This document shows positions 2,319 to 31,859 of a stretch of DNA of 60,964 nt, one piece after another. The position numbers were made by a program, and so were the translations under genes. The notes beneath the pieces are model-generated. The model made no database searches and was not told the DNA's origin. It worked only from the letters and a program-made list of their open reading frames with translations. The DNA comes from Eubacteriales bacterium (GTDB lineage Bacteria; Bacillota; Clostridia; Oscillospirales; CAG-272): assembly GCA_045594745.1 (NCBI GenBank), contig JAZNZC010000074.1, positions 1 to 60,964 of the forward strand, given 5' to 3'. Numbering within the stretch: the first letter of the stretch is position 1; every line of letters begins with the position of its first letter.

Positions 2319-2356
2319 GAAAGTCACGGTTGCGTTTTGCACCGTGGCTTTCTCTT
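2319..2356 (+). terminator. rho-independent terminator after the XRE/bactofilin-like gene
   Basis: AAGTCACGGT-tgcgttttgc-ACCGTGGCTT stem followed by a T-rich tract. Confidence 0.55.
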
Positions 2357-2406
2357 ATCTCTCCTTCAATTTATTTATCTCAAAATAAGTTTTTTGTTAT
2401 CTGTAC

Positions 2407-2435
2407 TTGTAAAAAGGATAAAGATATGATACAAT
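2407..2435 (+). promoter_or_regulatory. sigmaA-type promoter of the retron ncRNA-RT unit
   Basis: TTGTAA (2407-2412), 17 nt, TACAAT (2430-2435). The predicted TSS near 2442 coincides with the first base of the a1 repeat. Confidence 0.55.
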
Positions 2436-2441
2436 AAAAAC

Positions 2442-2673: not shown

Positions 2674-2697
2674 AATCATCGGGAAAGGAGTCGCTAT

Positions 2698-16294: not shown

Positions 16295-16510
16295 TTAAAT
16301 TTCAGAACAGTCCTTTAGATAGCTACCCATAGGAATATTTTCTTCTTTGCTTTTTGGATAAAATTCAGGAAAACAAAACAAATAGTAGTCGCACTCATCG
16401 CAACAACACTCAAAGCCTTGTTTTCCGTTGCCAAGACAAGTGGTAGGCTCCCCGGGCATGAGTTCTACGCCGGTAATATCGATTACCCTTTTTTGAATAT
16501 TCTTACCCAT
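16295..16510 (-). CDS. small cysteine-rich protein, unknown function
   Basis: 71 aa from MGKNIQKR with AGGGGGA RBS. Cys cluster CLGNGKQGFECCCDECDYYLFCF. The ORF-track start at 16558 lacks an RBS. Confidence 0.65.
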   Translation of the reverse strand: MGKNIQKRVIDITGVELMPGEPTTCLGNGKQGFECCCDECDYYLFCFPEFYPKSKEENIPMGSYLKDCSEI

Positions 16511-16530
16511 ATATCCCCCTATCAGCATAT

Positions 16531-16690
16531 AAAAAAGTGCGCCCCAAAAGGAACGCACCGAAAAAATGCTTCCCCTTCAATTGTTGTCACACGAATTGCT
16601 CCCCCAACGAAGGGATGAGGAAAAGGAGAAAACACTTTTTGCCAAAAGTATTTTCCCTTCGTTGGTTGGAACATATGCAATTCATGTGAC
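16531..16690 (-). promoter_or_regulatory. structured 5' leader with intrinsic terminator (candidate attenuator/riboswitch)
   Basis: Minus strand: 14-bp outer stem (16677-16690 with 16586-16599). 12-bp inner stem (16654-16665 with 16604-16615). Then a 9-bp terminator stem (16537-16545 with 16550-16558) plus U6, just upstream of the RBS. Confidence 0.35.
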
Positions 16691-16696
16691 GGGTAT

Positions 16697-16725
16697 ATTT
16701 TATCACATTTCTGCTGATTTGTCAA
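16697..16725 (-). promoter_or_regulatory. sigmaA-type promoter of the Cys-rich small-protein gene
   Basis: Minus strand: TTGACA (16725-16720), 17 nt, TAAAAT (16702-16697). Confidence 0.55.
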
Positions 16726-16839: not shown

Positions 16840-18435
16840 TTAATATCTGTAATCAAACCAATGGTCGGGGCTAAGGGAGAGGTCGGTTGCGTCCTCAACC
16901 TCATATTTGCGCTCGAGCCAAAGGATATTGCGGCTCTTGACGTCGTGAACCAGCTTTTTGGAACCCTCAAGGCTCGGGTGGAGCATCAATTTCAGATACT
17001 GCCATTGCAGAGCGGAGCGGCGAACGTTCTCTACGCGGTCCTCGTCGGCAAGCTCCTCGGCTTTTGCCCAAAGCTCGTCAAAGGACTCCTCGTTCTCGGC
17101 GTATTCCTCGCGCGTGATGGCTGTAAAGGGATTTTCGTAAATGTTCATACATCCGTCTTCTGCCAACTTTGTGGTCTTGTCGATGTATTTGCGAATGTAC
17201 TGCCAGCCTGCGCCGTAGTAGGCCTCGAGGAACTCATCCATGTGCGTGTAGTATTCTTCTTCCGACATATAGGGGTCCCACATCAGCTTGGCAAGCAGAT
17301 AAGCGCGGACCTCGCCAAACTCACCCGAAACAGATTGGCTATTGCCCTGCGGGAACATTCCGCGCACGTGGTTATCAACGTAAAAACGCATATTCTCGCG
17401 CAGCGCACCAAAGTTTGCATAGGTGGGAACGTAGAATTTGAAGTTTGTGGTGTAATCCCAAATATAGATGCGGTTGCAGATCTTACCCCATTCCACAAGG
17501 TCACGAACGAGGCTGGGGGTCTTTGTCCAAACGCTCTTGTTGGGGCACTTGGTCAGGGGGTGCATAAAGCAGCAACGAATAGAGCAGAGGCGCACGCAAA
17601 CGTTGGGCAGGGGCTTTGTGATCTTGGGAGCGGCCTGCGTGTAGTTGTAAGCGAGCGTGTCAACCACCACGTGGGGATAATCCTCTGCAATGTCTGCCGC
17701 GATGGCGTTGACAAAGCGAAGCATATTTCCCGAGGGGCTACCTTCTTCTGCGTCGATCGCTTGGCATTTTTCGCACTTGCAGTAGTTGTTATTGTCATTC
17801 TGCGAAACAGAAACGATATCGGTGTCAGGGTTTGCTTCGAGAGCGGCTCTGACGTTCTTGATAGCCTTTCTGAGGTTTTCGGGGTCGCAGAGGCAGGGGT
17901 TCGCACCGCCCCATTCGCCGGTTTCGGTCAGCTTACCAAGGGTGTGCACAAACAAGCCGCCATAGCTCCACTTGCCGCCAAATTTGCCGCTCATATCGGC
18001 ATCGCAGTTGTTAATGCCTTGCTTTGTGCACCATTCGGCGCTTCCCTTTACGGCGTTCCAGTTGATTTGGCGAGACTCGAAAATGGGTGCAAAATCAATG
18101 AGAACGCCCTCATCAAACGTGATGTCGCCTGCGGGGACCTTTTCAAGACCCGGCAGGAAGTAACGAACACCTGCGTATTTCTCGAGGAACTTGTAAACGC
18201 CATAGAGAACGGCGTGCTCTGTGCCGCCCGCGATGGTCATTCCATCGGCGGTTGCGCTGACGCGGAAGCCGTCATTGCGAGAGAGCGTTTTGTCATAGGT
18301 GATGGTGATAGGATAGCCACCATCCTCGATGGCAACGCCTTTCATCTCCAAATATTTTTGCAGCTCTTCTTTTGCATACACCTCGGTTTCGGTGTTGCCT
18401 GTGATGATAGAAACTTTTTTGAGAGTAATGCTCAT
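16840..18435 (-). CDS. DUF4838-like putative glycoside hydrolase, paralogue 1 (no signal peptide)
   Basis: 531 aa with AGGAGG RBS. Family motifs VLYGVYKFLEKYAGVRYF, VSVSQND, CKCEKC, DTLAYNYTQ, WDYTTNF, GEFGE.RAYL and EEEYY.HMDEFLEAYYGAGW. Starts directly with the catalytic-module N-domain. Confidence 0.88.
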   Translation of the reverse strand: MSITLKKVSIITGNTETEVYAKEELQKYLEMKGVAIEDGGYPITITYDKTLSRNDGFRVSATADGMTIAGGTEHAVLYGVYKFLEKYAGVRYFLPGLEKVPAGDITFDEGVLIDFAPIFESRQINWNAVKGSAEWCTKQGINNCDADMSGKFGGKWSYGGLFVHTLGKLTETGEWGGANPCLCDPENLRKAIKNVRAALEANPDTDIVSVSQNDNNNYCKCEKCQAIDAEEGSPSGNMLRFVNAIAADIAEDYPHVVVDTLAYNYTQAAPKITKPLPNVCVRLCSIRCCFMHPLTKCPNKSVWTKTPSLVRDLVEWGKICNRIYIWDYTTNFKFYVPTYANFGALRENMRFYVDNHVRGMFPQGNSQSVSGEFGEVRAYLLAKLMWDPYMSEEEYYTHMDEFLEAYYGAGWQYIRKYIDKTTKLAEDGCMNIYENPFTAITREEYAENEESFDELWAKAEELADEDRVENVRRSALQWQYLKLMLHPSLEGSKKLVHDVKSRNILWLERKYEVEDATDLSLSPDHWFDYRY

Positions 18436-18469
18436 TTGATTGCCTCCTTTTATCGGTAGGGTGTTATAT

Positions 18470-20323
18470 TTAGGGGTTCATGGGATCTTCTCCGTCCTGC
18501 GGTCCGCCACCGGTTTCGCCGCCAACGGGATAGAGATTTGTAAACATTTCATTGAGCGGCTTGTTGTTTTTGTCGCTCTCTGCCCATCTAATATCGTATC
18601 CCTTTACGTCCTCAATAAACTGTTGGCAAGCCTCTGCGTCGGGATGGAGCAACAGTTGAATGTAACGCCATTGCAAACGGGAGCGTTTTACGGCATCCAA
18701 ACGGTCACCCGCAAGCTCCTCGGCTGTATTCCACCAAGCCTCGATATCAGCCTCGTGTGCGAGGTACTCTTCTTTGGTGATGGAGTTCAGGGGTGCTTCG
18801 TAGATGTTGATGCAGCTACCGTCATTGGCAACAAGCTCGGTTGTCAAGTCGATGAATGCGCGAATACCTTCCCAACCTGCACCGTAGTAGGCTTCGAGAA
18901 ACTCATCCATATGCGAGTAGTATTCTTCCTCGCTCATATAGGGGTTCCACATCAGTTTGGCGATCAAATAGGCGCGGAGTTCGCCAAATTCACCGGAAAT
19001 GGATTGAGCGTTGCCTTGCTCAAACATTCCGCGAACGCCGTTTTCGTGGTAAAGTCTCATATTCTCACGAAGGGAGCCGAAGTTGGAAAAGGGTGCGATG
19101 TAATATGCAAAGTTGGTGGTGTAATCCCAAACGTACATGCGATCGCAGATTTCTCCCCACGCAAGCAGATCGGGTAAAAACTCGTGGGTTCTGCTCCACG
19201 CGTAGTTATTGGGGCCCAATGCATCGGGGCACTCAGTCATGGGGTGCATAAAGCAAACGCGAATGGAGCAGATACGGATGCAAACGTTTTCACGCGGAAC
19301 AATACCCTTGGGGGGTGTTTGCGTATAGTTATAAGCCAGCGTTTCAATGACGAGGTCGGGGTAATCTTTTTCTAACTCCTCGGCAATTCTGTTTACAAAT
19401 TCAAGCAGATTGCCTGCGGTGCCACCCTCCTCGTAGTTGTCGGGGTTATGGGTGTACTTGGCATAAGAGGCCAAGCAATCATCACACTTGCAGTATTCAT
19501 TTTTATCGTTTTGGGAAATGGATACGAGATGAGAGTTGGGGCTTTTCGCCAGGACGGCACGCACGTTTTTGAGGACCTTTTGATAGTTTTCCTCGCTGGA
19601 AAGACAAGGGTTGGGGGATGCGGTACCACCTGTCTCGGTCAATTTACCAAGAGTGTGAACGTTTAAGCCGGGGGCGAAGTCGACTTTACCGCCAAACGCG
19701 GGGGTGAGATGGCCGTTGCCGTTCATGCCGTTTTTCACACACCAAGAGAGCGCATCTTTTGTAGCAACACATTGCCAGCTGGTGTGGCGGTATTCAAAAT
19801 AGGGGGCGCGAGCGAGCAGATTGCCGTCACGGAGAACAATATCCCCCTCGGGGATCTTTTCAAGGTCGGGCATAAAGTAGCGCACGCCTGCGTATTTTTC
19901 AAGAAACTGATAAACGCCATAAAGAACGCCGCGGCCGTTGCCGCCGTAAATGGTCATACAGGCTTCCTCTCCGCGAAGTGTCGCATCAACAGAGAAGCTG
20001 TCATCGCCAAGTGTCGGGGCAAGACGAATGATGATGGGGAAGCCGCCATCCTTTACCTCAACGCCTTTTTTTGTCAGGTAAGCGGCGAGCTCTTCGCCTG
20101 CATAGACCTCGTTGTCGCTCTCGCCCGTAATGATGTTGGCGGATTTGAGAACGTTATCCTCTGTGATACCGTTTCCGTCATAGGAAGGCATAACGAACCA
20201 CGGCTCGTCGGGCTTGGTGGTCGTTTCGGGGGTGGTTTCGACGGGCGGTGTTGTATTGCACCCCGTCATAAAACAGGGCAAGAGAAGCGCTGCCACGAGC
20301 AAAAGCGTCAGTGTTTGTTTCAT
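18470..20323 (-). CDS. DUF4838-like putative glycoside hydrolase, paralogue 2 (lipoprotein)
   Basis: 617 aa from MKQTLTLLLVAALLLPCFMTGC (lipobox) with AAGGAG RBS, then a Thr/Pro linker. The ORF-track extension to 20455 lacks an RBS. Confidence 0.88.
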   Translation of the reverse strand: MKQTLTLLLVAALLLPCFMTGCNTTPPVETTPETTTKPDEPWFVMPSYDGNGITEDNVLKSANIITGESDNEVYAGEELAAYLTKKGVEVKDGGFPIIIRLAPTLGDDSFSVDATLRGEEACMTIYGGNGRGVLYGVYQFLEKYAGVRYFMPDLEKIPEGDIVLRDGNLLARAPYFEYRHTSWQCVATKDALSWCVKNGMNGNGHLTPAFGGKVDFAPGLNVHTLGKLTETGGTASPNPCLSSEENYQKVLKNVRAVLAKSPNSHLVSISQNDKNEYCKCDDCLASYAKYTHNPDNYEEGGTAGNLLEFVNRIAEELEKDYPDLVIETLAYNYTQTPPKGIVPRENVCIRICSIRVCFMHPMTECPDALGPNNYAWSRTHEFLPDLLAWGEICDRMYVWDYTTNFAYYIAPFSNFGSLRENMRLYHENGVRGMFEQGNAQSISGEFGELRAYLIAKLMWNPYMSEEEYYSHMDEFLEAYYGAGWEGIRAFIDLTTELVANDGSCINIYEAPLNSITKEEYLAHEADIEAWWNTAEELAGDRLDAVKRSRLQWRYIQLLLHPDAEACQQFIEDVKGYDIRWAESDKNNKPLNEMFTNLYPVGGETGGGPQDGEDPMNP

Positions 20324-20378
20324 AAAGGTTGCTCCTTTCAAAAAAGCAAAAAAAATATAAAACGAAGATGTTAGGTAT

Positions 20379-20406
20379 ATTATATCAAAATATATTATAA
20401 AAGCAA
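20379..20406 (-). promoter_or_regulatory. promoter of the paralogue 2-1 operon
   Basis: Minus strand: TTGCTT (20406-20401), 16 nt, TATAAT (20384-20379). GTAAACAA box lies 13 nt upstream of the -35. Confidence 0.5.
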
Positions 20407-20436
20407 GAGATAGAGAGATTTGTTTACAAAAAAGTA

Positions 20437-20475
20437 AACAACAGGGCAAACACAATTTGTGTTTGCCCTGTTGTT
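20437..20475 (-). terminator. terminator after paralogue 3
   Basis: 19-bp perfect arms AACAACAGGGCAAACACAA / TTGTGTTTGCCCTGTTGTT, followed by a T run on the minus strand. Confidence 0.7.
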
Positions 20476-20490
20476 ATAAAAATTTTTGCT

Positions 20491-22353
20491 TTATTGGTTT
20501 TCTTCGGGTTTTTCTTGAAGGTCAGGATAAAGATCCGTGAAGAACGACATTTGATAAATAGGGATATTGTTGTTTTTACCCTCAGCCCAGCGGATGCCAA
20601 GCTTTTCGACCTCTGCGGCAAAGGCAAGAGCCTCTTCGTCGTTGGGGTGCAAGAGGATCTGAATGCAACGCCATTGCAGACGGGAGCGGTGTACGTACTC
20701 GGCTCTGTCATATGCAACTGCTTCTGCCTTGCTCCACAGATTTTCAAAGAAGTATTCATTTGCAAGATATTCTTCCTTGGAGATGGATTGCAGCGGTTCC
20801 TCGTAAATGTTGATGCAGCTGTTGTCGTTTGCAACAAGCTGCGTGGTCTTGTCGATGAATTGACGGATGTATACCCAGCCTGCACCGTAGTAAGCCTCGA
20901 GAAATTCGTTCATATGTCTGTCGTATTCTTCTTGGGACATATAAGGATTCCACATCAGCTTTGCAAGAAGATAAGCGCGAAGCTCACCAAACTCACCGGA
21001 AATGGATTGGCTGTTGCCCTGCGGGAACATTCCGCGCACGCCGTTTTCGTGATAGAATTTCATATTCTCACGAATTGCGCCGAAGTTGGAGAAGGGAGCA
21101 ATGTAAAAACGGAAGTTGGTGGTGTAGTCCCAAAGGTAAATGCGATCACAGATCTTGCCCCAGTTGAGAAAATCGTTCATAAAGAGCTTGGTTCGGGTCC
21201 ATTGATAGCCGTTGGGCCCCTTGTGCTCGGGGCAAACGGTCATGGGGTGCATAAAGCATACGCGAATGGAGCAAACGCGGATGCAAACATTCTCATGGGG
21301 AACGATGTTCTTGGGAGGCGCTTGTGTGTAGTTGTAAGCAAGGGTATCGATAACGAGATCGGGATACTCGTCCTCTAATTCCTCGGCAATTCTGTTGACA
21401 AACGCAAGGAGTGTACCTGCAGGACCGCCTTGGGTAGGATCGGTTGCAGAGGTGCTGTAATACGCGTCGGACGCCTGACAGTTTTCGCATTTGCAATAGT
21501 CGTTGTTATCGTTTTGAGAGACGGATACAATGTTTACGGTGGGGTCTTCCTCAAGTCTTGCACGTAGGTTCTTGAGAACGGTTTGGTAGACTTCTTCACT
21601 GGTCAGGCAGGGATTGGGGTTGTCGCCGGGAGTTTCGTCGCTGGTGTCTTCGTTCAGCAAACCAAGCGTGTGAACGAACAAGCCACTGCCGTAAACGTTC
21701 TTGCCGCCGTATTTTGCGCTCATTTCGCCGTCGTGGCCGTTAATGCCTTGCTTGAGGCACCAATCGGTCGCTAGTTTTACCGAGTTCCAATTCAAGCGGC
21801 GATCTTCAAAGAAGGGGGTGTATTCCAAAACGACGCCATCCTTGAGGACGATATCGCTTGTGGGAACGGTTTCAAGGTCGGGGGTAAAGTAACGAACACC
21901 GCCAAGCTCCTCAAGGAACTTGTAAACGCCATAGAGCACGCCGCGGCCGTTGCCACCCTTGATGGTCATGCCTGCATTGTCACCCGAAAGGGTTGCGGTG
22001 ATCTTGAACGCGTCGGTTCCAAGTGTTTCATCGATCGAAAGAGCGATGGGGAATGCGCCATCCTTTACTTCGATCTTTTTCAGGCCGAGGTATTTTGCAA
22101 GCTCCTCGCCGGCATAAACCTCGCTCTCGCTCGCACCTGTGGTGATGCTGGCGCGCTTGAGCACGTTCTCGGCAGTGAGATCGGGGCCGTCGTAGGGGGG
22201 ATCAACAACTTCTTCGCCGCCGTTGTTGGGTGTGGTCGTTTCAGGAGTTGTGTTTTCAGGAGTTGTGTTTTCGGGGGGAGTATCGTTACAGCCTATCAAA
22301 AGGCAGGGCAGCAAAAGTGCCGCGATGAGCAGAATGATCAATGATCTTTTCAT
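20491..22353 (-). CDS. DUF4838-like putative glycoside hydrolase, paralogue 3 (lipoprotein)
   Basis: 620 aa. MKRSLIILLIAALLLPCLLIGC lipobox, TPENTTPE linker, AAGGAG RBS, same family motifs. Confidence 0.9.
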   Translation of the reverse strand: MKRSLIILLIAALLLPCLLIGCNDTPPENTTPENTTPETTTPNNGGEEVVDPPYDGPDLTAENVLKRASITTGASESEVYAGEELAKYLGLKKIEVKDGAFPIALSIDETLGTDAFKITATLSGDNAGMTIKGGNGRGVLYGVYKFLEELGGVRYFTPDLETVPTSDIVLKDGVVLEYTPFFEDRRLNWNSVKLATDWCLKQGINGHDGEMSAKYGGKNVYGSGLFVHTLGLLNEDTSDETPGDNPNPCLTSEEVYQTVLKNLRARLEEDPTVNIVSVSQNDNNDYCKCENCQASDAYYSTSATDPTQGGPAGTLLAFVNRIAEELEDEYPDLVIDTLAYNYTQAPPKNIVPHENVCIRVCSIRVCFMHPMTVCPEHKGPNGYQWTRTKLFMNDFLNWGKICDRIYLWDYTTNFRFYIAPFSNFGAIRENMKFYHENGVRGMFPQGNSQSISGEFGELRAYLLAKLMWNPYMSQEEYDRHMNEFLEAYYGAGWVYIRQFIDKTTQLVANDNSCINIYEEPLQSISKEEYLANEYFFENLWSKAEAVAYDRAEYVHRSRLQWRCIQILLHPNDEEALAFAAEVEKLGIRWAEGKNNNIPIYQMSFFTDLYPDLQEKPEENQ

Positions 22354-22386
22354 ATCTTTTCTCCTTAACCGTAAAGATGTGAGAAT

Positions 22387-24027
22387 TTATTTACCGTATT
22401 TCCAATAATAGGGACTGCGTGTCAGGTCAGATTCAGGTTGGACGTTGAATTGCCCCTCTTTCCAAACAACACCGGCAGCCTTTGCGTCGTCGATCAGTTT
22501 TTGGGCTTCCTCGGCATTGGGATGCAGGAAGAGCTTGGTCAGACGCCATTGCATCATGGAGCGCTGTACGCATTCGAGGCGGTCGCCTGCCATCTCTTCG
22601 GCCTTGTTCCACCACTCCTCAAAAAGAGCTTCGTGGTCAAGATATTCTTGTCTTGTAATGGCAGTGAGGGGATGGCCGTAAATGCCTTGTCCGCAAACGG
22701 GAGCACCTTCTGTCTCATCCTTGTTGATATTGAATCCGCCGTTCGCGGCAAGCTCTGTGGTTTTATCAATGAACTTACGAACATATTCCCAGCCTGCGCC
22801 GTAGTAGGCCTCGAGAAATTCGTCCATCAGAGCGTAGTATTCTTCTTCGGTCATATAGGGGTTCCACATCAGCTTGGCGAGTAGGTAAGCACGGAGCTCA
22901 CCAAACTCACCCGAAGCGCCCTGGCTGTTACCCTGCGGGAACATCGAAACGACGTTGTTCTCGGCAAAGAACTTCATATTCTTGTGAATGACGCCAAGGT
23001 TTGCAAAGGTGGAAAGGTAATAGTGGAAGTTCGTGGTGTAATCCCAAATGTGAAGCTTGTCACAAATCTTACCCCAACCAACGATATCGTCGTGGAATTT
23101 CTTGCTGCGCGGACAATCCTGATCATCAAGGGGATGCGTAAAGCAGCAGTTGATAGAGCAAAGACGAATGCAAACATTGTGACGGGGCTTTGTGATCCTC
23201 GGGGGCTTTTGCGTGTACTTGTATGCCAACGTATCAACGGTGAGGTGGGGGTAATCTTTTTCCAAGTCTTCCGCCACAGCGTTGACAAAGCGGAGCAGAG
23301 GTCCTGCGGGAGTGCCTTCTTCCTCTTCGATCTTGCGGCAGTTAGGACAATGGCAGTAACCCTCAAAATCGTTTTGCGAAACAGAAACGATGTTAATATC
23401 GGGGTTTTCGGCAAGAGCCTTGCGGACGTTTTTGATAACGGTGGCAAGCACATCGGGATCTGTCACGCAGGGGTTGGTGCCGTATGCGGGATAGGGATAG
23501 GTGGTCTCAGCAAGAATGTTGATGGTGTGCACAAACAGTCTGCCATAGTTCAGGCGTTGACCGCCAAGCTCCTCGGTGAGCTTTGCATCACAGTTGTTGA
23601 TGCCGTTTTTGACACACCAATCCGCATCGGATTGAACACAGCGCCAAGTCAGGCGGCGAGCCTTCATAGCAGGGGAGTATTCCAACACGATGCCGTGGGG
23701 AATGACGATGTCGCCCTTGGGGCATTTTTCCAACGTGGGTGTAAAGAAACGAACGCCTGCGTATTTTTCGAGGAAGTTGTAAACCCCGTAGAGCACGCCG
23801 ACCTTGTCACCCGTGATGGTCATGCCTTTTTCGGTTGCTTCGATTTTGTAACTGTCTTGATCAAAAGCAGGGTCTACCGCGATCGAGATCGGAAAACCGT
23901 CGTTCGAGAGGGCAACACCTTTCTTTTGCAAATACTTTGAAAGTTCTTCTGCGGCGTGAAGAGCTGTGGGCTCTTTACCTGATGTAATATTTACCGCAGT
24001 CAGTGTCTTTGTCATTTTGGGTTTCAT
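22387..24027 (-). CDS. DUF4838-like putative glycoside hydrolase, paralogue 4 (no signal peptide)
   Basis: 546 aa, starting MKPKMTKTLTAVNITSG with no hydrophobic leader. 33 nt upstream of paralogue 3. Confidence 0.88.
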   Translation of the reverse strand: MKPKMTKTLTAVNITSGKEPTALHAAEELSKYLQKKGVALSNDGFPISIAVDPAFDQDSYKIEATEKGMTITGDKVGVLYGVYNFLEKYAGVRFFTPTLEKCPKGDIVIPHGIVLEYSPAMKARRLTWRCVQSDADWCVKNGINNCDAKLTEELGGQRLNYGRLFVHTINILAETTYPYPAYGTNPCVTDPDVLATVIKNVRKALAENPDINIVSVSQNDFEGYCHCPNCRKIEEEEGTPAGPLLRFVNAVAEDLEKDYPHLTVDTLAYKYTQKPPRITKPRHNVCIRLCSINCCFTHPLDDQDCPRSKKFHDDIVGWGKICDKLHIWDYTTNFHYYLSTFANLGVIHKNMKFFAENNVVSMFPQGNSQGASGEFGELRAYLLAKLMWNPYMTEEEYYALMDEFLEAYYGAGWEYVRKFIDKTTELAANGGFNINKDETEGAPVCGQGIYGHPLTAITRQEYLDHEALFEEWWNKAEEMAGDRLECVQRSMMQWRLTKLFLHPNAEEAQKLIDDAKAAGVVWKEGQFNVQPESDLTRSPYYWKYGK

Positions 24028-24055
24028 ATCTTTTTCCTTTACTGTGTGTAAGGAT

Positions 24056-25837
24056 TTATCCGCCGTACTTCCAGTAGTAGGGGCTCAATGTCAGATCGGA
24101 GCTTGCCTGAACGTTGATGTTGCCTTCCTTCCAAACAACACCCGCAGCCTTTGCATCGGCAATGAGCTTTGCTGCATCCTCGGCATTGGGCTCTAAATAA
24201 AGCTTTGCCAAACGCCATTGCATAGCGGAGCGTTGTACAAATTCCTTGCGATCGCCCGCAAGTTCCTCAGCCAAAGCCCAGCACTCATCAAAGCGATATG
24301 TAAAATTGTAATATTCTTCCCTTGTAATAACAGTAAGGGGATGGTCATAAATGCCCTGTCCGCAAACCGCATTGGTGGGTTTTTCTTCTCCGTTGAGCTT
24401 GTATCCGCCATTCGAGGCGAGCTGGCTTGTCAAGTTGATATACTCACGAACAAAGGTCCAGCCTGCGCCGTAGTAAGCCTCGAGGAACTCATTCATATGT
24501 CTGTTATATTCTTCCTCGCTCATGTAGGGGTTCCACATCAGCTGTGCCAACAGATAGGAGCGGAGCTCACCGAACTCACCCGAGCGGCCCTGGCTGTTAC
24601 CCTGCGGGAACATCGATACCACGTTGTTTTCAGCATAGAATCTCATATTCTCGCGAATGGTGAACAGGTTTGCAAAGGTGGAGATGTAGTAATGGAAGTT
24701 GGTGGTGTAGTCCCAAATGTGAATGTTGTCACAAATTTTACCCCAACCAACGAGGTCGTCGCGGAACTTTTTGCTCTTGGAGCAGGATGTGTCGCTTATC
24801 GGATGTGTGAAGCAGCAGTTGATGGAGCACAGACGAACGCAAACGTTATGACGGGGCTTGACTTGCGTAGGGGGAGATTGGGTGTTTTTATACGCAAGCG
24901 TGTCGATGATGAGATCGGGATAATCTGCCTCAAGCTCTTCGGCAACTCTGTTTACAAACTGGATCCAAACACCGGAGTAGTTGCCGCCGTTCTCCTCTGC
25001 GATCTTTGCGCAGTTGGGGCAGTAGCAGGATTGCTCATAGTCGGCTTGAGAAACAGACACGATATTGATGGCGGGGTTCTTTTCAAGCTCCTTGCGCAGG
25101 TTCGCAATAACCATAGCAAAGATCTCGGGGTCGGTCAGGCAGGGGTTGGTTGCGTAGGTGGGGTAGGGGTAGGTAGTGTTTGTCAAAGGTGCAATGGTGT
25201 GCACAAAGAAGGGGCCGTAGTTCGAGCTGACACCGCCGTGCATTTCGTCGATTGCGACGTTGCAGCCGCTGACGCCATTCTTTACGCACCATTCCGCATC
25301 GTGGCCCGTATAGTTCCAGGAGAGACGGCGGTCCAATGCAATAGCAGGGGTGTACTCCAAAACAACGCCGTCGGGAATGATAACGTCACCGGGGTAAACG
25401 GTTTCGAGCTCGGGTGTAAAGTAACGCACACCTGCGTACTTTTCAAGAAAACGGTAAACGGCATAAAGGACACCGCGCTCGTTACCGCCCTTAATGGTCA
25501 TACCGACGTTCTCTTCAAGGGACGCCTCGATCTTAAAACCGTTGTCGTTAATGGTGGAGTCGATGGCAATAGAGATCGGGAAGCCGTCCTCTGCCTGCGT
25601 AATGCCTTGCTTGCTCAGGTAGGCGAGCAATTCGGCAGCGGCAAAGGCCTCGCTCGAGGTCTCTCCTGCAGTAACCTTAACGGTAGTCAGCTTTATTGTC
25701 TTTCCCTCCGGATTTGTAACGGGGGGATTTGTTCCCGTGGGGGTCGTTTGTTCGGGCTTGTCAGAGAGGTTGCAACCACTCAGGAAGCAAGGCAAGAGAA
25801 GCGCCGAGATGAGTAGAACGATCAATACCTTTTTCAT
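24056..25837 (-). CDS. DUF4838-like putative glycoside hydrolase, paralogue 5 (lipoprotein)
   Basis: 593 aa from MKKVLIVLLISALLLPCFLSGC (lipobox) with AAGGAG RBS. The ORF-track extension to 25888 was rejected. Confidence 0.88.
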   Translation of the reverse strand: MKKVLIVLLISALLLPCFLSGCNLSDKPEQTTPTGTNPPVTNPEGKTIKLTTVKVTAGETSSEAFAAAELLAYLSKQGITQAEDGFPISIAIDSTINDNGFKIEASLEENVGMTIKGGNERGVLYAVYRFLEKYAGVRYFTPELETVYPGDVIIPDGVVLEYTPAIALDRRLSWNYTGHDAEWCVKNGVSGCNVAIDEMHGGVSSNYGPFFVHTIAPLTNTTYPYPTYATNPCLTDPEIFAMVIANLRKELEKNPAINIVSVSQADYEQSCYCPNCAKIAEENGGNYSGVWIQFVNRVAEELEADYPDLIIDTLAYKNTQSPPTQVKPRHNVCVRLCSINCCFTHPISDTSCSKSKKFRDDLVGWGKICDNIHIWDYTTNFHYYISTFANLFTIRENMRFYAENNVVSMFPQGNSQGRSGEFGELRSYLLAQLMWNPYMSEEEYNRHMNEFLEAYYGAGWTFVREYINLTSQLASNGGYKLNGEEKPTNAVCGQGIYDHPLTVITREEYYNFTYRFDECWALAEELAGDRKEFVQRSAMQWRLAKLYLEPNAEDAAKLIADAKAAGVVWKEGNINVQASSDLTLSPYYWKYGG

Positions 25838-25901
25838 TGTTTTTCTCCTTTTGGTTCGTATCAAGGATAGATAGAAATGCAGATACATTCCTTCACCCTA
25901 T

Positions 25902-25930
25902 ATCATACCAAAAACTGTAATAAAAAGCAA
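25902..25930 (-). promoter_or_regulatory. promoter of the paralogue 5-4-3 operon
   Basis: Minus strand: TTGCTT (25930-25925), 17 nt, TATGAT (25907-25902). GTAAACAA box lies 13 nt upstream of the -35. Confidence 0.5.
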
Positions 25931-25986
25931 TAGTGTTCTTTATTTGTTTACAAATATTTACTTACAAAAATAAAAAGACAAAAAAA

Positions 25987-26010
25987 GCAAGCGGCTCACG
26001 AGCCGCTTGC
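25987..26010 (-). terminator. terminator after paralogue 6
   Basis: GCAAGCGGCT-cacg-AGCCGCTTGC, followed by T7 on the minus strand. Confidence 0.7.
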
Positions 26011-26025
26011 TGAAAATAAGTCTTA

Positions 26026-27723
26026 TCAAGATTTGTAGATCCACTCTGTGGGAGCGAGATCAAGATTGGAGTTTGCAGTGTCAACGTTCCATTGTTTTTC
26101 ACGCCAAGCAACTCTTTCGTTGAAGGAGATCTTGTTTTCTTCGATCAGTGCCAGTGCGTCCGCCTTGTTGGGGTGCAGGCAGAGCTTGATGTAACGCCAC
26201 TGATAACGGCCGCGCTTTACAAAAGCGATACGGTCGCCGGCGAGCTCCTCGGCCTTGTTCCACCATTCATCAAAGGTTGCCTCGTTGGCGAGGTATTCAT
26301 CCTTGGTAAGGGCATCAAAAGGACTGCCGTCAACCATCTGATGTCCGTCGGCGGAGAGCTCGATGATCTTATCGATAAACTTGCGAATGTATTCCCAACC
26401 CTCGCCGTAGAAGGCCTTGAGGAAGGAATCCATATAACCGTAGTATTCTTCCTCGCTCATTGTAGGATCTTGAATAAGCTTTGAGATCAAATAAACGCGC
26501 AATTCGCCAAATTCACCCGAGGGACAAGCGATGTTACCCGTAAAGTTGATGCTTGAAACGCCATACTCTGCAAAGAAGTTCATATTCTCGCGTAGCGTAC
26601 CGAGGTTTGCAAAAATGGGCATATATTCTTTGGCAGCGGTCAAGGCGTATTCTATGTGGATGTTATCACAAATTGAGCCCCAGCTCTTTATCTTTGCTGC
26701 GAGGTCGGCGGCCTCTGGGCAGGAGGCGTCGGTGAGGGGGTGCGAGATGTGACAGCTTGCGGTGTTGAAGCGGATCGAAATACCGTCAACCGGTTTTGTA
26801 ACGGAGGGGGCAGTTGTCAGATAAGAACGGATCACGAGCTCAAATTTTAACTCGGGATAATCAACCGTGATCTCTTTGTAGAGCTTATTGAGAAATCGGA
26901 CGTAATTTCCTGCAGGGCTGCCTTCCTCCTCGTGAACGCGGGCACAGCTTTCGCAGGTGCAGAAGGGGTCGACCTCGGTTTTTGGTGTAAAGCTGATAAT
27001 ATCAATGTCGGGAATAGCACGCAAGTAATTCCGAACGTTTTGAACTGCCTTGGCAAAGATCTCGGGGTCGCTCAGACAGGGCTTGATGTTACCTGTTCCC
27101 GCAAGGGCGTTAAGTGCCAGTGTTTGGGTGACGTTGCTGTCGGTGCGACTGCCGCCATCCTTTTCGGGGAGCTTATCAATGGGAGCCCAAGGATTACGAA
27201 TGACCTCAAACGCGGGCTCGAATACATCCAACACACCGCCGCCGATCATCAGGTCGCCATCATCTATCACGGTCGTGTCCGCAGAATAGATGTGAACACC
27301 CAAGAATTTTTCAAGAAAACCGTAAAGGCCGTTGGCAAGACCGCGATTGTCGCCGCCCATAACCGTAAGGCCGTTCTCGTCGGCTGTAATTCTGTAGCCG
27401 CCCTCGGCTACACGCTCATCAATGATGAAGGAGATGGAATAACCGTCCTCGGCGAGGGGGATATTCTTTTTTGCCAAATACCATTTCAGCTCCGTTGCGG
27501 CAAAGCTTTCAATGGCACTCTCGCCAGAGGAGATCTTGACGCTTGTGATCTTTTTTGCGGGAGTTTCAGGGGGACTGGGAAGCGGGTTGGGGTCAGGTGT
27601 TGTTTCGGGCGTTTGGTCGGGAGTGCTTCCTTCGGGAGTTTGGGGCTTGTTACAAGCTGCAAGAACGGACACCAGCATAACAACCGTCAAAAGGAGCGCG
27701 AATATTCTTTTCATCATACTCAT
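26026..27723 (-). CDS. DUF4838-like protein, paralogue 6 (lipoprotein, motif-divergent)
   Basis: 565 aa. MSMMKRIFALLLTVVMLVSVLAAC lipobox. Keeps CTCESC, SHP..C and GEFGELR. Replaces SQND, DTLAY, WDYTTNF and MFPQGN. Confidence 0.85.
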   Translation of the reverse strand: MSMMKRIFALLLTVVMLVSVLAACNKPQTPEGSTPDQTPETTPDPNPLPSPPETPAKKITSVKISSGESAIESFAATELKWYLAKKNIPLAEDGYSISFIIDERVAEGGYRITADENGLTVMGGDNRGLANGLYGFLEKFLGVHIYSADTTVIDDGDLMIGGGVLDVFEPAFEVIRNPWAPIDKLPEKDGGSRTDSNVTQTLALNALAGTGNIKPCLSDPEIFAKAVQNVRNYLRAIPDIDIISFTPKTEVDPFCTCESCARVHEEEGSPAGNYVRFLNKLYKEITVDYPELKFELVIRSYLTTAPSVTKPVDGISIRFNTASCHISHPLTDASCPEAADLAAKIKSWGSICDNIHIEYALTAAKEYMPIFANLGTLRENMNFFAEYGVSSINFTGNIACPSGEFGELRVYLISKLIQDPTMSEEEYYGYMDSFLKAFYGEGWEYIRKFIDKIIELSADGHQMVDGSPFDALTKDEYLANEATFDEWWNKAEELAGDRIAFVKRGRYQWRYIKLCLHPNKADALALIEENKISFNERVAWREKQWNVDTANSNLDLAPTEWIYKS

Positions 27724-27770
27724 TTTTATAAATTCCTTTCCTAAAAATCAAATTGTACTGTTGGTATTCT

Positions 27771-29558
27771 TTACCATCTGGTGTTGTGTTGGTTACCCTC
27801 ACTCCACCAAATGCCGCGGTCCGTAATTTCCTGAACGTAGTCGGGCTGCTGTGCTTGATTGAATCTTGCATTAAACCAACGCCATTGGAGGCTGGAGCGG
27901 CGAACGTTGTCTACGCGTGCCTCGTCGGCCATAGCCTCGGCCTTTGCCCACCAATCGTCAAAGGTGTAGATCATAGTGATATACTCCTCGGCGCTTACGC
28001 GGATAAGTGGATGCATATAAGTGTCGCCGCAATGCTTTTCAAACATTTCGGAGGTTTTATCGATATACATACGGATATAGGACCAGCCGTCGCCGTAGTA
28101 AGCCTCGAGGAACTCATCCATCAGGCGATAGTATTCTTCCTCGCCCATATAGGGGTTCATCATCAGCTTGGAGAGCAGGTATGAACGGAGCTCGCCAAAC
28201 TCACCCGAGGGGCCCTCGCGATTGCCCTGTGTAAACATTCCTCTCGCGTTGTGCTCTGCATAAAATTGCATATTTTCCTGCAGAACGTGCAGATTTGCAT
28301 AGGTGGGGATGTAAAAAGCAAAGTTGGTGGTGTAGTCCCAGATGTGAATGTTATCGCAAATTGCGCTCCATCCCTCAAGGTCGCGGCAGAATTTTGCATT
28401 TGCACTGCAGGTCGGGTCAGTCAAGGGATGTGTGAAGCAGCATTTGATAGAGCAAAGGCGAATACAAACATTCTTCTCGGGAACGATGTTTTTGGGAGGC
28501 GTTTGCGAGTAGGCGTATGCCAGCGTGTCGATGGTGAGGTTGGGGTAATCGTTGGCAAGGTCCTTTGCAACCTCATTTACGAATGCAAGAATCGTGCCGG
28601 AGGGGCTGCCGTAATAAGCATTCAACGCCAAACAATTTGCACAGCGGCAGTAGTCGGCATCGTTCTGCGAAACAGAAATAATGGTTGCCGTCGGGTATAG
28701 TTCCAGTTGTGCACGAACGTTTTTAATAGTCTTTGCAAGGTTTTCCTGGCCCTTGGGAGTATCCAAAGCGAGACAGGGGTTTACCGAAAGACCGTTACCT
28801 GTTTCGGTCAGGGAACCCATGGTGTGAACAAAGAGCTTACCGTAGTCCCAGGCGCCGCCAAGGCTCTCGTCCCAGGAGTTCCACCAGCCGTCAACCATAT
28901 TGACGCCGTTTTTGACGCACCATGGATATCTAAACTGATTGGGTACCCATTTGTACCAGTCGTTGACGCGCATCTCGAATACGGGATGGTATTCGATCAT
29001 TTTGCCTTCCTCAATGATGACGTCTCCCTCGGTGGGATAGACCTCAAGGTAGGGTGTGAAGGAGCGCAGACCTGCGTATTTTTCAAGGAATCCGTAAACG
29101 CCGTAAAGAACGCCGCGACCGTTACCGCCGCGAATATCCATACCGGGGCGATTGCCCTCGATAACAGCCTCTACACAATAAGAGTCATCCTCCATCGTGG
29201 TGTCGAGATAGATCGAGATGGGGAAGCCACCCTCGGAGACGGTGATGGAGCGTTTTTCAAGATATGCCGTCAGCTCTGAGAGAGCGGTCAGCTCAGCGGG
29301 AGATTCGCCCGCGTCAATGGTTACGTGCGTCAGCTTCATTGTAACCTTGGGTTCAACGGGCTCTTCTTGATCGGGGGTTGTTATTTCCGGTGTGGTTGTC
29401 GTTTCTTCGGGTTCATCTTTTCCACCGGCAACAGCCAATCCGACGATCAGGCCTACAACAAGAGCCAGTCCGAGGAAAATAGCAACGTATACCTTCCAAT
29501 ACTTCTTGTCAAGATACTTTTTCCAATCGAATTTTTTGGTGTTTTTTGTTTCTTCCAT
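27771..29558 (-). CDS. DUF4838-like putative glycoside hydrolase, paralogue 7 (N-terminal TM anchor)
   Basis: 595 aa. MEETKNTKKFDWKKYLDKKYWKVYVA followed by a TM helix and Thr/Pro/Glu linker. AAAGGAA RBS. Confidence 0.9.
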   Translation of the reverse strand: MEETKNTKKFDWKKYLDKKYWKVYVAIFLGLALVVGLIVGLAVAGGKDEPEETTTTPEITTPDQEEPVEPKVTMKLTHVTIDAGESPAELTALSELTAYLEKRSITVSEGGFPISIYLDTTMEDDSYCVEAVIEGNRPGMDIRGGNGRGVLYGVYGFLEKYAGLRSFTPYLEVYPTEGDVIIEEGKMIEYHPVFEMRVNDWYKWVPNQFRYPWCVKNGVNMVDGWWNSWDESLGGAWDYGKLFVHTMGSLTETGNGLSVNPCLALDTPKGQENLAKTIKNVRAQLELYPTATIISVSQNDADYCRCANCLALNAYYGSPSGTILAFVNEVAKDLANDYPNLTIDTLAYAYSQTPPKNIVPEKNVCIRLCSIKCCFTHPLTDPTCSANAKFCRDLEGWSAICDNIHIWDYTTNFAFYIPTYANLHVLQENMQFYAEHNARGMFTQGNREGPSGEFGELRSYLLSKLMMNPYMGEEEYYRLMDEFLEAYYGDGWSYIRMYIDKTSEMFEKHCGDTYMHPLIRVSAEEYITMIYTFDDWWAKAEAMADEARVDNVRRSSLQWRWFNARFNQAQQPDYVQEITDRGIWWSEGNQHNTRW

Positions 29559-29605
29559 TCTCTTACGTTCCTTTCATAAGGTTATCCAAATAAGATGTGT
29601 ATACT

Positions 29606-29635
29606 ATTATAGCACGAAAATATTGGCAATGTCAA
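29606..29635 (-). promoter_or_regulatory. promoter of the paralogue 7-6 operon
   Basis: Minus strand: TTGACA (29635-29630), 18 nt, TATAAT (29611-29606). Confidence 0.55.
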
Positions 29636-29674
29636 CTGTTTTTGCACTGTTTTGCTTTCAAAATTCAAAAAAGA

Positions 29675-29695
29675 CGCTCGACAGATAGTCGAGCG
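29675..29695 (-). terminator. terminator after paralogue 8
   Basis: CGCTCGAC-agata-GTCGAGCG, followed by a T run on the minus strand. Confidence 0.6.
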
Positions 29696-29710
29696 GCTAA
29701 AGGATGAGGT

Positions 29711-31570
29711 TTAATTTTCGTCTGTTTTGGGTTGTGTAAACCATTTATCGGGTTCGAGAGCTAACAGATTGTATTGATAAGCATACCAAAGGAGTTTGGG
29801 ATTCCGTTCACTCCATTTGGTTCCCATAGCCTCAACCTCTGCGGCGAACTGCTCGGCGGTTTCCAAATCGGGGTGAATGAAGAGAAGGAGATAGCGCAGC
29901 TGCCAACGGGAACGTTGAACGTATTCGAGGCGATCGCCTGCGGCTGCCTCGGCAGCATCCCACCAACCGTTGAAGCTGTCCTCAAGCGAAGCCAAAGAAT
30001 CCTTTGAAAGAACGCCAAAGGGATAGTTGTAAAGAGTCATTCCACTGGGGGACATATTAGCATATTGCGTATACGTGTTGATGTATTTGCGAATGTTTTC
30101 CCAACCCTCTCCGTAGTAAGCGGCGAGGAATTCATCCATGTGAGCGTAATATTCATCCTTGCTCATATAGGGGTCCATCAAGAGCTTGCCGATAAGGTAA
30201 GCGCGCAATTCACCGAACTCGCCCGAGGGGCCCGAGCCATTGCCCTGCTCATAAATGCCCTTGACATTGTGGTTGGCAAAGAATTGTACATTCTCACGCA
30301 GAACGTGGAAGTTGGGGAAGGTAGCAAGGTAATATGCGTAGTTTGTGGTGTAGTCCCAAATATAGATGTTGTCACAAATCGCGCTCCATTCCTCAATGGC
30401 CTTGCGGAAGTTAGAGCAAACGGAACAACTGCTTTTGGTAAGAGGATGCGTCAAGTGACAGGTGATCGTAGAGAGACGGATGCAAACGTTGGGTGCAGGC
30501 TTTGTAACCTTGGGCGCGGGTTGCGTGTATTCGTACGCCAATGTATCGATGACGACATCGGGATAATCTTGCGCGATATCGTTGGCAATTTTGTTTACAA
30601 AGCGGAGAAGTGTGCCCGAAGGGCTGCCTTCTTCTTTGTCTATGGCATCGCAGTTAGCACAACGGCAACGAGCAGAGGTGTCGTTTTGAGAGACGGAAAA
30701 AATTCTTGTGTTGGGGTTTTCGGCTAATATCTTATGCACGTTGGCAAGAGCGGTGTTGTAAATGTTTTCGTCGGTCAGGCAGGGGTTTGCCGATGTTCCG
30801 CCGCCTGTTTCGGTCAGCTTGCCTATGGTGTGCACAAACATACTGGGAGCATAGGAAAGGCTACCGCCGAGGGATTCGTCCCAAGACTGTTTCCAACCGC
30901 TCATAATATTGATGCCGACTTTAGACGCCCAAGTATGTCGTTTGGTTTCATCCATCCAGTTGTACCAGTCGGTCTGGCGGAGCTCAAAGGTGGGGGTATA
31001 ATCCAAAAGAACACCGTCGGGAATGGCAACCTCGCCTGCCCTACATACCTCTAAATCGGGGGTAAAAAAGCGCACGTCTGCGTAGTTTTCAAGGAATCGA
31101 TAAACACCGTAGAGCACGCCACGGCCATTGCCGCCCACGATGGAAAGGCTCTCGTCCTTACCCTCGCCAACGATTGCCGTTACGCGAAAAGCATCGTCTC
31201 CGAGCGTTTCATCGATCGAGAGCGTAATAGGGAAACCGCCCGTAGCCCGAACATCAACGCCTTTTTCAAGCAGATATTTTTTGAGGTCGTTTGCCGCAGT
31301 CTCCTCGGCAGGAGAAGCACCCATAGAAATAGAGACCTGTGTCAGCGTTTTTTGAATAACGGCAGGCGGATCTTCCTCCTTGGGAGTGGTCACCTCGGGA
31401 GTAGTTTCTTCAGGACTGCCACCGATCACGCCGGTGGCAAGCAAAACGATCAGCGTTGCGGCAAGAACCACGACACCGATGCCGATAGCATAAAATTTCC
31501 AATATTTTTTGTCAAGATATTTCTCCCACCACTTTTTTTCGGGGGGAGTAGAATTTTTGGTTTCTTCCAT
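29711..31570 (-). CDS. DUF4838-like putative glycoside hydrolase, paralogue 8 (N-terminal TM anchor)
   Basis: 619 aa. MEETKNSTPPEKKWWEKYLDKKYWKFYA followed by a TM helix and linker. AAGGAG RBS. Confidence 0.9.
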   Translation of the reverse strand: MEETKNSTPPEKKWWEKYLDKKYWKFYAIGIGVVVLAATLIVLLATGVIGGSPEETTPEVTTPKEEDPPAVIQKTLTQVSISMGASPAEETAANDLKKYLLEKGVDVRATGGFPITLSIDETLGDDAFRVTAIVGEGKDESLSIVGGNGRGVLYGVYRFLENYADVRFFTPDLEVCRAGEVAIPDGVLLDYTPTFELRQTDWYNWMDETKRHTWASKVGINIMSGWKQSWDESLGGSLSYAPSMFVHTIGKLTETGGGTSANPCLTDENIYNTALANVHKILAENPNTRIFSVSQNDTSARCRCANCDAIDKEEGSPSGTLLRFVNKIANDIAQDYPDVVIDTLAYEYTQPAPKVTKPAPNVCIRLSTITCHLTHPLTKSSCSVCSNFRKAIEEWSAICDNIYIWDYTTNYAYYLATFPNFHVLRENVQFFANHNVKGIYEQGNGSGPSGEFGELRAYLIGKLLMDPYMSKDEYYAHMDEFLAAYYGEGWENIRKYINTYTQYANMSPSGMTLYNYPFGVLSKDSLASLEDSFNGWWDAAEAAAGDRLEYVQRSRWQLRYLLLFIHPDLETAEQFAAEVEAMGTKWSERNPKLLWYAYQYNLLALEPDKWFTQPKTDEN

Positions 31571-31630: not shown

Positions 31631-31659
31631 ATTTTACAGGAGAACGCGCAAAAAGGCAA
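31631..31659 (-). promoter_or_regulatory. promoter of paralogue 8
   Basis: Minus strand: TTGCCT (31659-31654), 17 nt, TAAAAT (31636-31631). GTAAATAA box lies 13 nt upstream of the -35. Confidence 0.5.
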
Positions 31660-31859
31660 TAGGGAGAGCTTTTTATTTACAAAAAAGTTAAGAACGGGAT
31701 GCTTCTTGACAGAACAATGAGCCGCGGTGGCAACTTTCGGATTGTTTGTTACAAACGAATGAAATAAAATAACTGGTAGGGGACGGCGCCCTCGACGTCC
31801 CATTTTATTGCTAACAACCCTATTTAGATATTTTTTGTTTAGAAAGTTCCTGAAGGGGG

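Follow-up and report, generated by a model that had tools for sequence, protein, structure and literature searches.

A tandem array of eight DUF4838 paralogues, probably an old and maintained set of GH163/GH185-superfamily glycoside hydrolases, in an uncultured Clostridia bacterium

The contig JAZNZC010000074.1 of assembly GCA_045594745.1 (60,964 nucleotides, analysed over its whole length and referred to here as the window) carries on its minus strand, at 16840-31570, eight consecutive open reading frames (ORFs) of 531-620 aa, designated c1 to c8, which according to the ORF listing and a Pfam scan all belong to family PF16126 (DUF4838). Measured against the PF16126 gathering threshold of 26.6 bits, the eight copies score 146.9-270.4 bits, with E-values from 1e-42 (c6) to 2.7e-80 (c4), and a profile made from them returned exactly eight matches within the whole window. 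Pairwise identity among the copies is 34-64% for the proteins and 49.5-68.1% for the codon-aligned DNA, and the longest exact DNA word common to any two of them is 30 nt. The starts of c2 and c5 were placed at the ATG following a GGAG ribosome-binding site (RBS), which gives both proteins a normal lipoprotein signal; the mechanical ORFs begin further upstream. A preliminary description, made by reading the sequence without database searches, had reported eight same-strand tandem paralogues of this size and had ascribed them to DUF4838; its coordinates and lengths match the ORF listing, and the Pfam scan bears out the family for every copy. The host is best explained as an uncultured Oscillospiraceae-like Clostridia bacterium from an animal hindgut or rumen. 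Features of the window are compiled in Table 1.

Table 1. Genes and predicted expression signals in and around the DUF4838 array (window coordinates)
Feature	Position	Strand	Details
c1	16840-18435	(-)	531 aa, without signal peptide; Pfam E 1e-76
c2	18470-20323	(-)	617 aa from MKQT; Pfam E 2.9e-70; RBS GGAG, then ATG at 20323; mechanical ORF to 20455
c3	20491-22353	(-)	620 aa; predicted lipoprotein signal …LLIGC; Pfam E 5.1e-75
c4	22387-24027	(-)	546 aa, without signal peptide; Pfam E 2.7e-80, profile positions 3-325
c5	24056-25837	(-)	593 aa from MKKV; predicted lipoprotein signal …FLSGC; Pfam E 3.1e-75; mechanical ORF to 25888
c6	26026-27723	(-)	565 aa, divergent; predicted lipoprotein signal …VLAAC; Pfam E 1e-42
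c7	27771-29558	(-)	595 aa; predicted transmembrane anchor; Pfam E 6.4e-70
c8	29711-31570	(-)	619 aa; predicted transmembrane anchor like that of c7; Pfam E 1.6e-78
Weak promoter-like site upstream of c8	31631-31659	(-)	9/12 matches
Terminator-like hairpin and T-run after c8	29675-29695	(-)	sequence scan
Promoter-like site for c7-c6	29606-29635	(-)	TTGACA-18-TATAAT, 12/12 matches, TG present
Terminator-like hairpin after c6	25986-26011	(-)	11 bp stem, T7
Promoter-like site before c5	25930-25902	(-)	TTGCTT-17-TATGAT
Terminator-like hairpin after c3	20437-20475	(-)	18 bp stem
Extended -10 before c2, TGATATAAT	20387-20379	(-)	sequence reading
Hairpin directly after c1 stop codon	16794-16830		15 bp; strand unassigned; likely end of the c2-c1 unit
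Metallo-β-lactamase (MBL) protein	11539-16074	(+)	1511 aa, three ~480-aa MBL-fold modules; surface-anchored (predicted), convergent to the array; Pfam and NCBIfam
GH30	4150-5514	(-)	domain scans
GH2	6697-8448		domain scans
GH78	8714-11086		domain scans
GH31	33331-36741		domain scans
GH92	49227-51185		domain scans
MFS-GH2 fusion	56254-59250	(+)	one 998-aa ORF; MFS residues 32-375, GH2 domains 502-866

The alignment of the eight proteins features the motifs GVLYGVY.FLE, VSVSQND, CxCxxC, DTLAY.YTQ, WDYTTNF, GEFGELRAY and MSEEEYY..MDEFLEAYYG.GW. All the conserved blocks quoted in the preliminary description are present, with c6 departing from most of them and c5 departing at QND and Y.Y. The AlphaFold model of c1 (predicted local distance difference test, pLDDT, 93.7; predicted template modelling score, pTM, 0.93) comprises an α/β N-terminal domain (residues 1-115), a (β/α)8 barrel and a C-terminal helical bundle. 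In the Pfam scan the N-domains gave sub-threshold matches to GH20b, GH67N and NAGLU_N, and Foldseek comparison of the c1 model with the PDB returned GH84 O-GlcNAcases, GH138, GH67, GH115 and GH20 lacto-N-biosidase at TM-scores of 0.40-0.53 and 10-13% identity. These weak N-domain matches, the confident model and the Foldseek results agree with the architecture anticipated in the preliminary description, a β-hexosaminidase-like N-domain followed by a TIM barrel. The only sequence match in the PDB was to the N-domain of GH115 (E 0.007-0.025), a family that also has a WDYT(T/S)N motif; the same search detected no DUF4838 structure, and the NCBIfam scan of the copies gave no match. The near-invariant residues are R122/W126, H164, Q212-N213-D214, D259/Y263/Y265/Q267, W326-D327-Y328, Q363/N365 and E372/E375 (c1 numbering). 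They are located at the predicted barrel strands or shortly past them, H164 being in the coil that precedes helix 166-170 of the model, and for H164, Q212-N213-D214, D259, W326-D327-Y328, Q363/N365 and E372/E375 the near-invariance covers seven copies.

CAZy family GH163 was founded on BT1035 of Bacteroides thetaiotaomicron, whose catalytic domain is DUF4838 (PMC10570127). BT1035 is a surface endo-β-N-acetylglucosaminidase that cuts the GlcNAc-β1,2-Man linkage in complex N-glycans (PMC10570127, PMC10154615). LacNAc units are released by this cut. A second enzyme, Sp_0475 of Streptococcus pneumoniae, founds GH185 and is a cytoplasmic exo-acting 6-sulfo-β-GlcNAcase with a substrate-assisted mechanism, with Q174, H227, D309 and Y436 as catalytically important residues and R633 as the sulfate-binding one (PMC10570127). 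The earlier remark that DUF4838 has no established activity is therefore outdated, since both of these enzymes use the domain. Membership in a well-characterised CAZy family of known specificity had been named as an outcome that would undo the picture of an uncharacterised enzyme family; it does so by half, because the CAZy families do exist but GH163 and GH185 each rest on a single characterised enzyme. The family itself is large: the profile of c1-c8 matched 12,241 clusters at 50% identity among 1.84 billion representatives, 3,286 of them at E ≤ 1e-30, and a sequence similarity network (SSN) displays large diversity inside DUF4838 (PMC10570127). Our literature search, in which three papers mentioned DUF4838, retrieved no report of tandem DUF4838 arrays, and most of its 'GH163' matches were really to GH16_3.

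The two families can be told apart by their cysteines. In GH163 one Cys stands immediately ahead of α3 and C-x-C-x-x-C comes after β4, as in the Zn-binding GH42 enzymes, whereas GH185 has CxCxxC only, the first Cys (before α3) being missing (PMC11776370). C181, C219, C221 and C224 are invariant in c1-c8 and in 71 aligned homologues, and in the c1 model helix 185-201 starts four residues past C181, with strand 207-209 ahead of the CxCxxC. Read against this one published signature, the Cys pattern of all eight copies is of the GH163 type and not of the GH185 type. A second conserved Cys/His motif follows β6 (c1 residues 280-297: C280…C284…C288-[C/H]289-x-x-H292-P…C297); it persists for the most part in distant homologues, and even in c6, and a second metal site may lie here.

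With BT1035 the window copies have in common the DUF4838 catalytic domain, the four-Cys cluster and a gut habitat, and BT1035 is surface-exposed, as six of the eight are predicted to be. They differ from it at the C-terminus, where BT1035 has an F5/F8 (CBM32-type) domain, which need not be a trait of GH163 as a whole, and the window copies end instead in a helical bundle of ~110 aa; PF00754 (F5/F8-type C) was not matched in any copy in the Pfam scan, and none of the long DUF4838 representatives scanned has an F5/F8 domain. BT1035 is also encoded by a single gene in a polysaccharide utilization locus, in contrast to eight tandem paralogues, and the window host is Gram-positive, with lipobox or transmembrane anchors and T/P/E linkers. 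Sp_0475 resembles the copies in its DUF4838 domain, in the CxCxxC after β4 and in its Firmicutes origin. The copies differ from Sp_0475 in the additional Cys before α3, in being shorter (531-620 aa), in that six of eight are predicted to be exported, and in that no phosphotransferase system or GH1 genes lie near the array. GH185 corresponds to SSN cluster 3, made up of proteins without signal peptide (PMC10570127); c1 and c4 likewise have none, whereas a lipobox or a transmembrane anchor is present in the remaining six. H164, D214 and Y328 stand in the same chain order as H227, D309 and Y436 of Sp_0475, a likeness of order only, and c1 with its 531 aa is too short to hold a residue numbered like R633.

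We consider it probable that the array is an old, actively maintained tandem set of eight DUF4838 glycoside hydrolases of the GH163/GH185 superfamily, GH163 being closest by signature. The mechanistic model is provided by GH84 and GH20, which belong to the same three-part fold class, are among the best Foldseek matches and act by neighbouring-group participation, their catalytic pair being carried by the β4 loop; a Cys cluster placed as in the window copies also occurs in some GH20s. One of these, TrdeGH20, has the layout C157…D188E189…C198,C201 (PMC11776370), and N213-D214 of the copies is placed like its D188-E189 relative to the Cys cluster (C181…N213D214…C221,C224). Because N213-D214 occupies this position, D214 would be the acid/base and N213 the partner that polarises the acetamido group, and c1-c8 would be retaining β-N-acetylhexosaminidase-type glycosidases that hydrolyse β-linked N-acetylhexosamine (HexNAc) by substrate assistance. 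The Cys4 site would bind a structural metal, probably Zn. Identity to GH84 and GH20 is 10-13%, the GH20 D-E pair (after H-x-G-G) and the GH84 D-D pair do not occur in the copies, whose β4 loop reads S-Q-N-D, and the Pfam models of the GH20 and GH84 catalytic domains were not matched, only the sub-threshold N-domain matches and the fold similarity linking the copies to them.

The eight copies differ in predicted location. Both c1 and c4 begin at the N-domain and have no room for a signal, since the previous stop is only 14 (c1) and 19 (c4) codons upstream, and they are predicted to be cytoplasmic. In c2, c3, c5 and c6 a lipobox (…FMTGC in c2, read from the N-termini) is followed by a T/P/E-rich linker, and c7 has a basic N-terminal cytoplasmic tail, one transmembrane helix and a T/P/E linker (anchor MEETKNTKKFDWKKYLDKKYWKVYVA…), with c8 of the same type. 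Six copies are thus predicted to be tethered outside the cell, c2, c3, c5 and c6 as lipoproteins and c7 and c8 by transmembrane anchors.

Evolutionary rates were computed for each copy against its orthologues in five sister genomes, as protein identity and as the ratio of nonsynonymous to synonymous substitution rates (dN/dS, here rough values). The most conserved copy is c1 (91-95% identical, dN/dS 0.035-0.076), followed by c4 (80-84%, 0.065-0.090), and the exported copies are 62-83% identical with dN/dS of 0.13-0.24 (0.17-0.20 for c6); the neighbouring MBL protein gave 58-69% and 0.15-0.24. All eight paralogues are intact and under purifying selection. The 91-95% identity of c1 across species is found where neighbouring genes are only 56-83% identical, and its dS is 0.64-0.89 against 0.78-1.65 for other genes, which points to unusually strong constraint on c1, possibly with some exchange between species.

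The barrel-top residues differ as well. Q[A/S/T]D replaces QND in the c5 clade, and N or H replaces Y265. In the c6 clade R122, H164, Q212/N213, D259-T-L-A-Y, W326-D-Y and Q363 are all replaced. Position 214 is still acidic there, and the clade retains the Cys cluster, H292-P293 and SGEFGELR. The c6 replacements are themselves conserved across species (EYALTA, E[LI]V.R.YL, CHISHP), which argues that c6 is maintained, with a changed activity or a binding role. The exposed copies would cut HexNAc-containing glycans into fragments, and c1 and c4 would finish imported oligosaccharides in the cytoplasm, a division of labour by location that would mirror the surface endo-acting BT1035 and the cytoplasmic exo-acting Sp_0475. 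The exposed copies would have diversified in specificity, c5 through N213→A/S/T and c6 through its new barrel-top set. Given these active-site changes and the differing locations, the diversified substrate-specificity set proposed in the preliminary description is plausible.

The neighbour-joining tree groups (c2,c3) with a bootstrap value of 99, (c1,c2,c3) with 98, (c4,c5) with 100 and (c7,c8) with 79, and places c6 on a long branch. These groupings support the subgroups 1-2-3, 4-5 and 7-8, with 6 as an outlier, and the nested duplications that had been suggested by eye. Each window copy clusters with its own orthologues (bootstrap 91-100), and best-match analysis of independent assemblies showed the gene order c7-c6-c5-c4-c3-c2-c1-MBL to be retained in sister species. 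The NCBI metagenome-assembled genome (MAG) GCA_052833805.1 (locus L001) has at least nine copies adjoining the same ~1500-aa MBL protein, ENA metagenome scaffolds have at least six, and a scan of GTDB species representatives found many uncultured Oscillospiraceae, Eubacteriales and Clostridia gut MAGs with 5 to at least 9 tandem copies in a 20-kb locus. The GTDB records with arrays name buffalo, goat and roe-deer caecum, yak, buffalo and goat rumen, rabbit, and faeces. Copy number varies: there is one extra c2-like clade that is missing from the window, L001 contains a further c2-like copy (three c2-like genes altogether), and c2 is missing in locus L008. The array would thus gain and lose copies between species.

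More distant arrays, from SIG649, UMGS416 and Ca. Parachristensenella avicola, form separate clades in the tree. That of UMGS416 (locus L074, 6395-21553) consists of at least nine tandem DUF4838 genes and that of Ca. Parachristensenella avicola (L070, 4490-13501) of five, none of them with a signal peptide; both arrays are predicted to be all-cytoplasmic, unlike the mostly exported window array. In SIG649 (L025, 8945-11527 and 16153-18789) the gene for an (α/α)6-barrel glycoside hydrolase, with weak GH116/trehalase/GH78-type matches, lies between DUF4838 copies, and a GH95 fucosidase adjoins the array.

Several points weigh against a set of GH163/GH185-type HexNAc-ases. The putative polarising residue is Asn, where GH20 and GH84 have Asp. 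The choice between GH163, GH185 and a new family was made from the single Cys signature, and BT1035 and Sp_0475 were compared by description. The locus contains no sugar transporter or dedicated regulator; a conserved partner of either kind was sought and none was found, the flanks of the distant arrays holding housekeeping genes, GH95 or a Sel1 protein. Near-saturation of dS makes the dN/dS values rough, and the signal peptides, promoters and terminators are predictions. In addition, the structural neighbours include the inverting α-glucuronidases GH67 and GH115, which together with the GH115 N-domain match (E 0.007) and the common WDYT[ST]N motif makes a non-HexNAc activity possible.

This last point leads to the alternative that survives best, in which the copies are glycosidases of another specificity or mechanism, for example GH115/GH67-like uronidases acting on plant or microbial polysaccharides, and form a battery for a non-HexNAc glycan. 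In the Foldseek comparison GH67, GH115 and GH138 match no worse than GH84 and GH20 do, and GH115/GH67 have the highest TM-scores (0.51-0.53). The sole PDB sequence match is to GH115, the neighbours GH78, GH30, GH2 and GH31 are of kinds typically used on plant glycans, the related genomes are from the guts of herbivores, and the SSN displays large diversity inside DUF4838 (PMC10570127). The similarity to GH115, however, lies mainly in the non-catalytic N-domain, and membership in GH115/GH67 finds nothing beyond that match at E 0.007-0.025 and the sub-threshold GH67N matches. The GH115/GH67 enzymes are inverting and have another catalytic apparatus, whereas the two DUF4838 enzymes characterised so far act on β-GlcNAc linkages and do so with retention or neighbouring-group participation (PMC10570127), and His, Asp and Tyr occur in the copies in the same order as the catalytic residues of Sp_0475. 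We regard this alternative as rather unlikely.

Within the genus both flanks of the array are conserved, with a PF01553 acyltransferase at the c8 end and the 1511-aa MBL protein at the c1 end, whose repeats carry HGHGDH, HGDGDH and HGHGDH. The MBL protein adjoins the array in loci L001-L005, L008-L010 and L013, and it is the convergent neighbour in every sister MAG with enough flank. It has no PDB match by sequence; the model of a single module (pLDDT 93.9) gave as best Foldseek matches the MBL nuclease domain of ComEC and the teichoic-acid phosphorylcholine esterase Pce/CbpE of S. pneumoniae, at 13-15% identity. The MBL protein, c7 and c8 have a common N-terminal cassette, MEE[ST]K…KKFDWKKYLDKKYWKVYVA followed by a transmembrane helix and a T/P/E linker, at 11539-11660 (+) in the MBL gene, 29558-29440 (-) in c7 and 31570-31450 (-) in c8, with near-identical RBS, and in the DNA alignment the RBS and first ~110 nt of the MBL gene and of c7 are visibly similar by eye. 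The sister-genome orthologues of these three proteins are lipoproteins by their signals, an indication that recombination has swapped the anchor in this lineage.

These observations allow a second alternative, in which the array and the triple MBL protein act together on HexNAc polymers that are phosphodiester-decorated or -linked (teichoic-acid-like polymers, capsular glycopolymers of other microbes, phosphoglycans), the MBL modules stripping phospho-substituents and the DUF4838 enzymes cutting the sugar backbone. It draws on the conserved convergent neighbour, on the promoter-proximal, RBS and anchor cassette that the MBL gene, c7 and c8 have in common in this genome, and on the ComEC and Pce/CbpE matches. 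Against it, the MBL gene and the array are not co-transcribed, because their adjacency is convergent, and this adjacency is restricted to one genus; the distant arrays (L021/L025, L070, L074) have no MBL protein, and fold similarity at 13-15% identity says little about the substrate. A general linkage of MBL and DUF4838 genes was rejected, as single-module MBL homologues elsewhere lie in unrelated contexts and do not adjoin DUF4838 genes, and for the same reason the statement that the MBL protein may be functionally linked to the array is offered only as a hypothesis. The phosphodiester alternative as a whole seems improbable to us. We assign an equally small probability to a broader proposal, that the array, instead of ordinary hexosaminidases, provides a lineage-specific, fast-evolving surface glycan-cutting repertoire. 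One clade or more, c6 with its rebuilt but conserved active site among them, would have a new activity or a non-catalytic capture role, and the repertoire would cooperate with the adjacent three-module Pce/ComEC-like MBL phosphodiesterase in dismantling phosphorylated HexNAc polymers of other gut microbes (teichoic-acid-like, phosphoglycan).

Marginally less probable still is the view that several copies are redundant or decaying duplicates, with c6 a dead enzyme that is kept as a glycan-binding protein or is being lost. The c6 protein is without most of the barrel-top residues invariant in the other copies and scores ~100 bits lower against Pfam, and the variation in copy number between sister genomes (the extra c2-like clade, c2 missing in L008) would fit such a view. 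A pseudogene reading was rejected in view of the eight intact ORFs and of the orthologues that each clade, c6 included, has in several species at dN/dS of 0.04-0.24; the c6 clade moreover conserves its own replacement residues and the acidic residue at 214, and divergence at the 34-64% identity level with order retained across species argues for long-term maintenance. Hardly any weight attaches to an expanded or mis-joined repeat, an assembly artefact that the preliminary description had allowed for and in favour of which nothing was found, since copies with 50-68% DNA identity and a longest common word of 30 nt are too divergent to have arisen from, or to have caused, mis-assembly, and the same ordered array occurs in independent assemblies of other samples and species.

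Strong minus-strand terminator-like hairpins occur only after c8, c6 and c3, each followed by a promoter-like site, and the other intergenic gaps in the array measure 28-47 bp. This arrangement fits the four transcription units given in the preliminary description, [c8], [c7-c6], [c5-c4-c3] and [c2-c1], which are predicted from the sequence. The palindrome TTTGTAAACAAA is found just past the preceding terminator and upstream of the promoter in each of the four predicted units, exactly at 20419-20430 (upstream of c2) and 25943-25954 (upstream of c5) and with 1-2 mismatches at 31672-31683 and 29651-29662; other exact or one-mismatch sites, inside copies (30590, 19388, 24947), correspond to a coding FVN motif. 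The palindrome could act as a shared operator or UP-like element, or it could be left over from duplication.

The stretch separating c1 from the MBL gene holds, at 16295-16725 (-), a strong promoter-like site (16725-16697) and after it a leader of ~185 nt with very stable folding (-76.7 kcal/mol, z = -7.9), which ends in a terminator-like hairpin and precedes a 71-aa Cys-rich ORF (16510-16295 (-), …CLGNGKQGFECCCDECDYYLFCF…); neither Rfam nor Pfam gave a match for this locus. Sister MAGs have no such locus at this place, and the leader may be a riboswitch or attenuator of an unknown kind. Neither the Rfam scan nor the tRNA scan of the window returned anything.

The wider window carries GH30, GH2, GH78, GH31, GH92 and MFS-GH2 genes, and the term 'GH-rich' island used in the preliminary description is for this reason a fair one, though housekeeping genes are interspersed. 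A fusion of transporter and glycosidase such as the MFS-GH2 ORF is unusual. At the other end of the window, a low-GC stretch (GC 0.41) at 320-3609 (+) contains a retron-type reverse transcriptase (2698-3609; PADLOC RT_Ec107-like, E 1.6e-127), upstream of which lies a 387-aa HTH_3 protein (320-1483 (+)) with weak RmrA/HTH matches, and is probably a retron defence locus.

The enzymes are new members of a known superfamily, and the array itself is an ordinary gene-family expansion that is useful for its internal contrasts. Most likely it provides a battery, at the surface and in the cytoplasm, of retaining β-N-acetylhexosaminidase-type enzymes with diversified specificities, as far as can be judged from sequence. 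DUF4838 is a large family with only two characterised enzymes, both cutting N-acetylglucosamine linkages. Here a single locus offers eight natural variants, with exported and cytoplasmic forms, one clade with a rebuilt active site and orthologues for comparison, and it is therefore a compact test set for the determinants of specificity in enzymes of the GH163/GH185 type. The interest of such enzymes lies in N-glycan remodelling and in the analysis of sulfated glycans. The pairing of MBL and DUF4838 proteins, if true, has not been described before for DUF4838 enzymes, and the array could reveal the diet of uncultured hindgut Clostridia.

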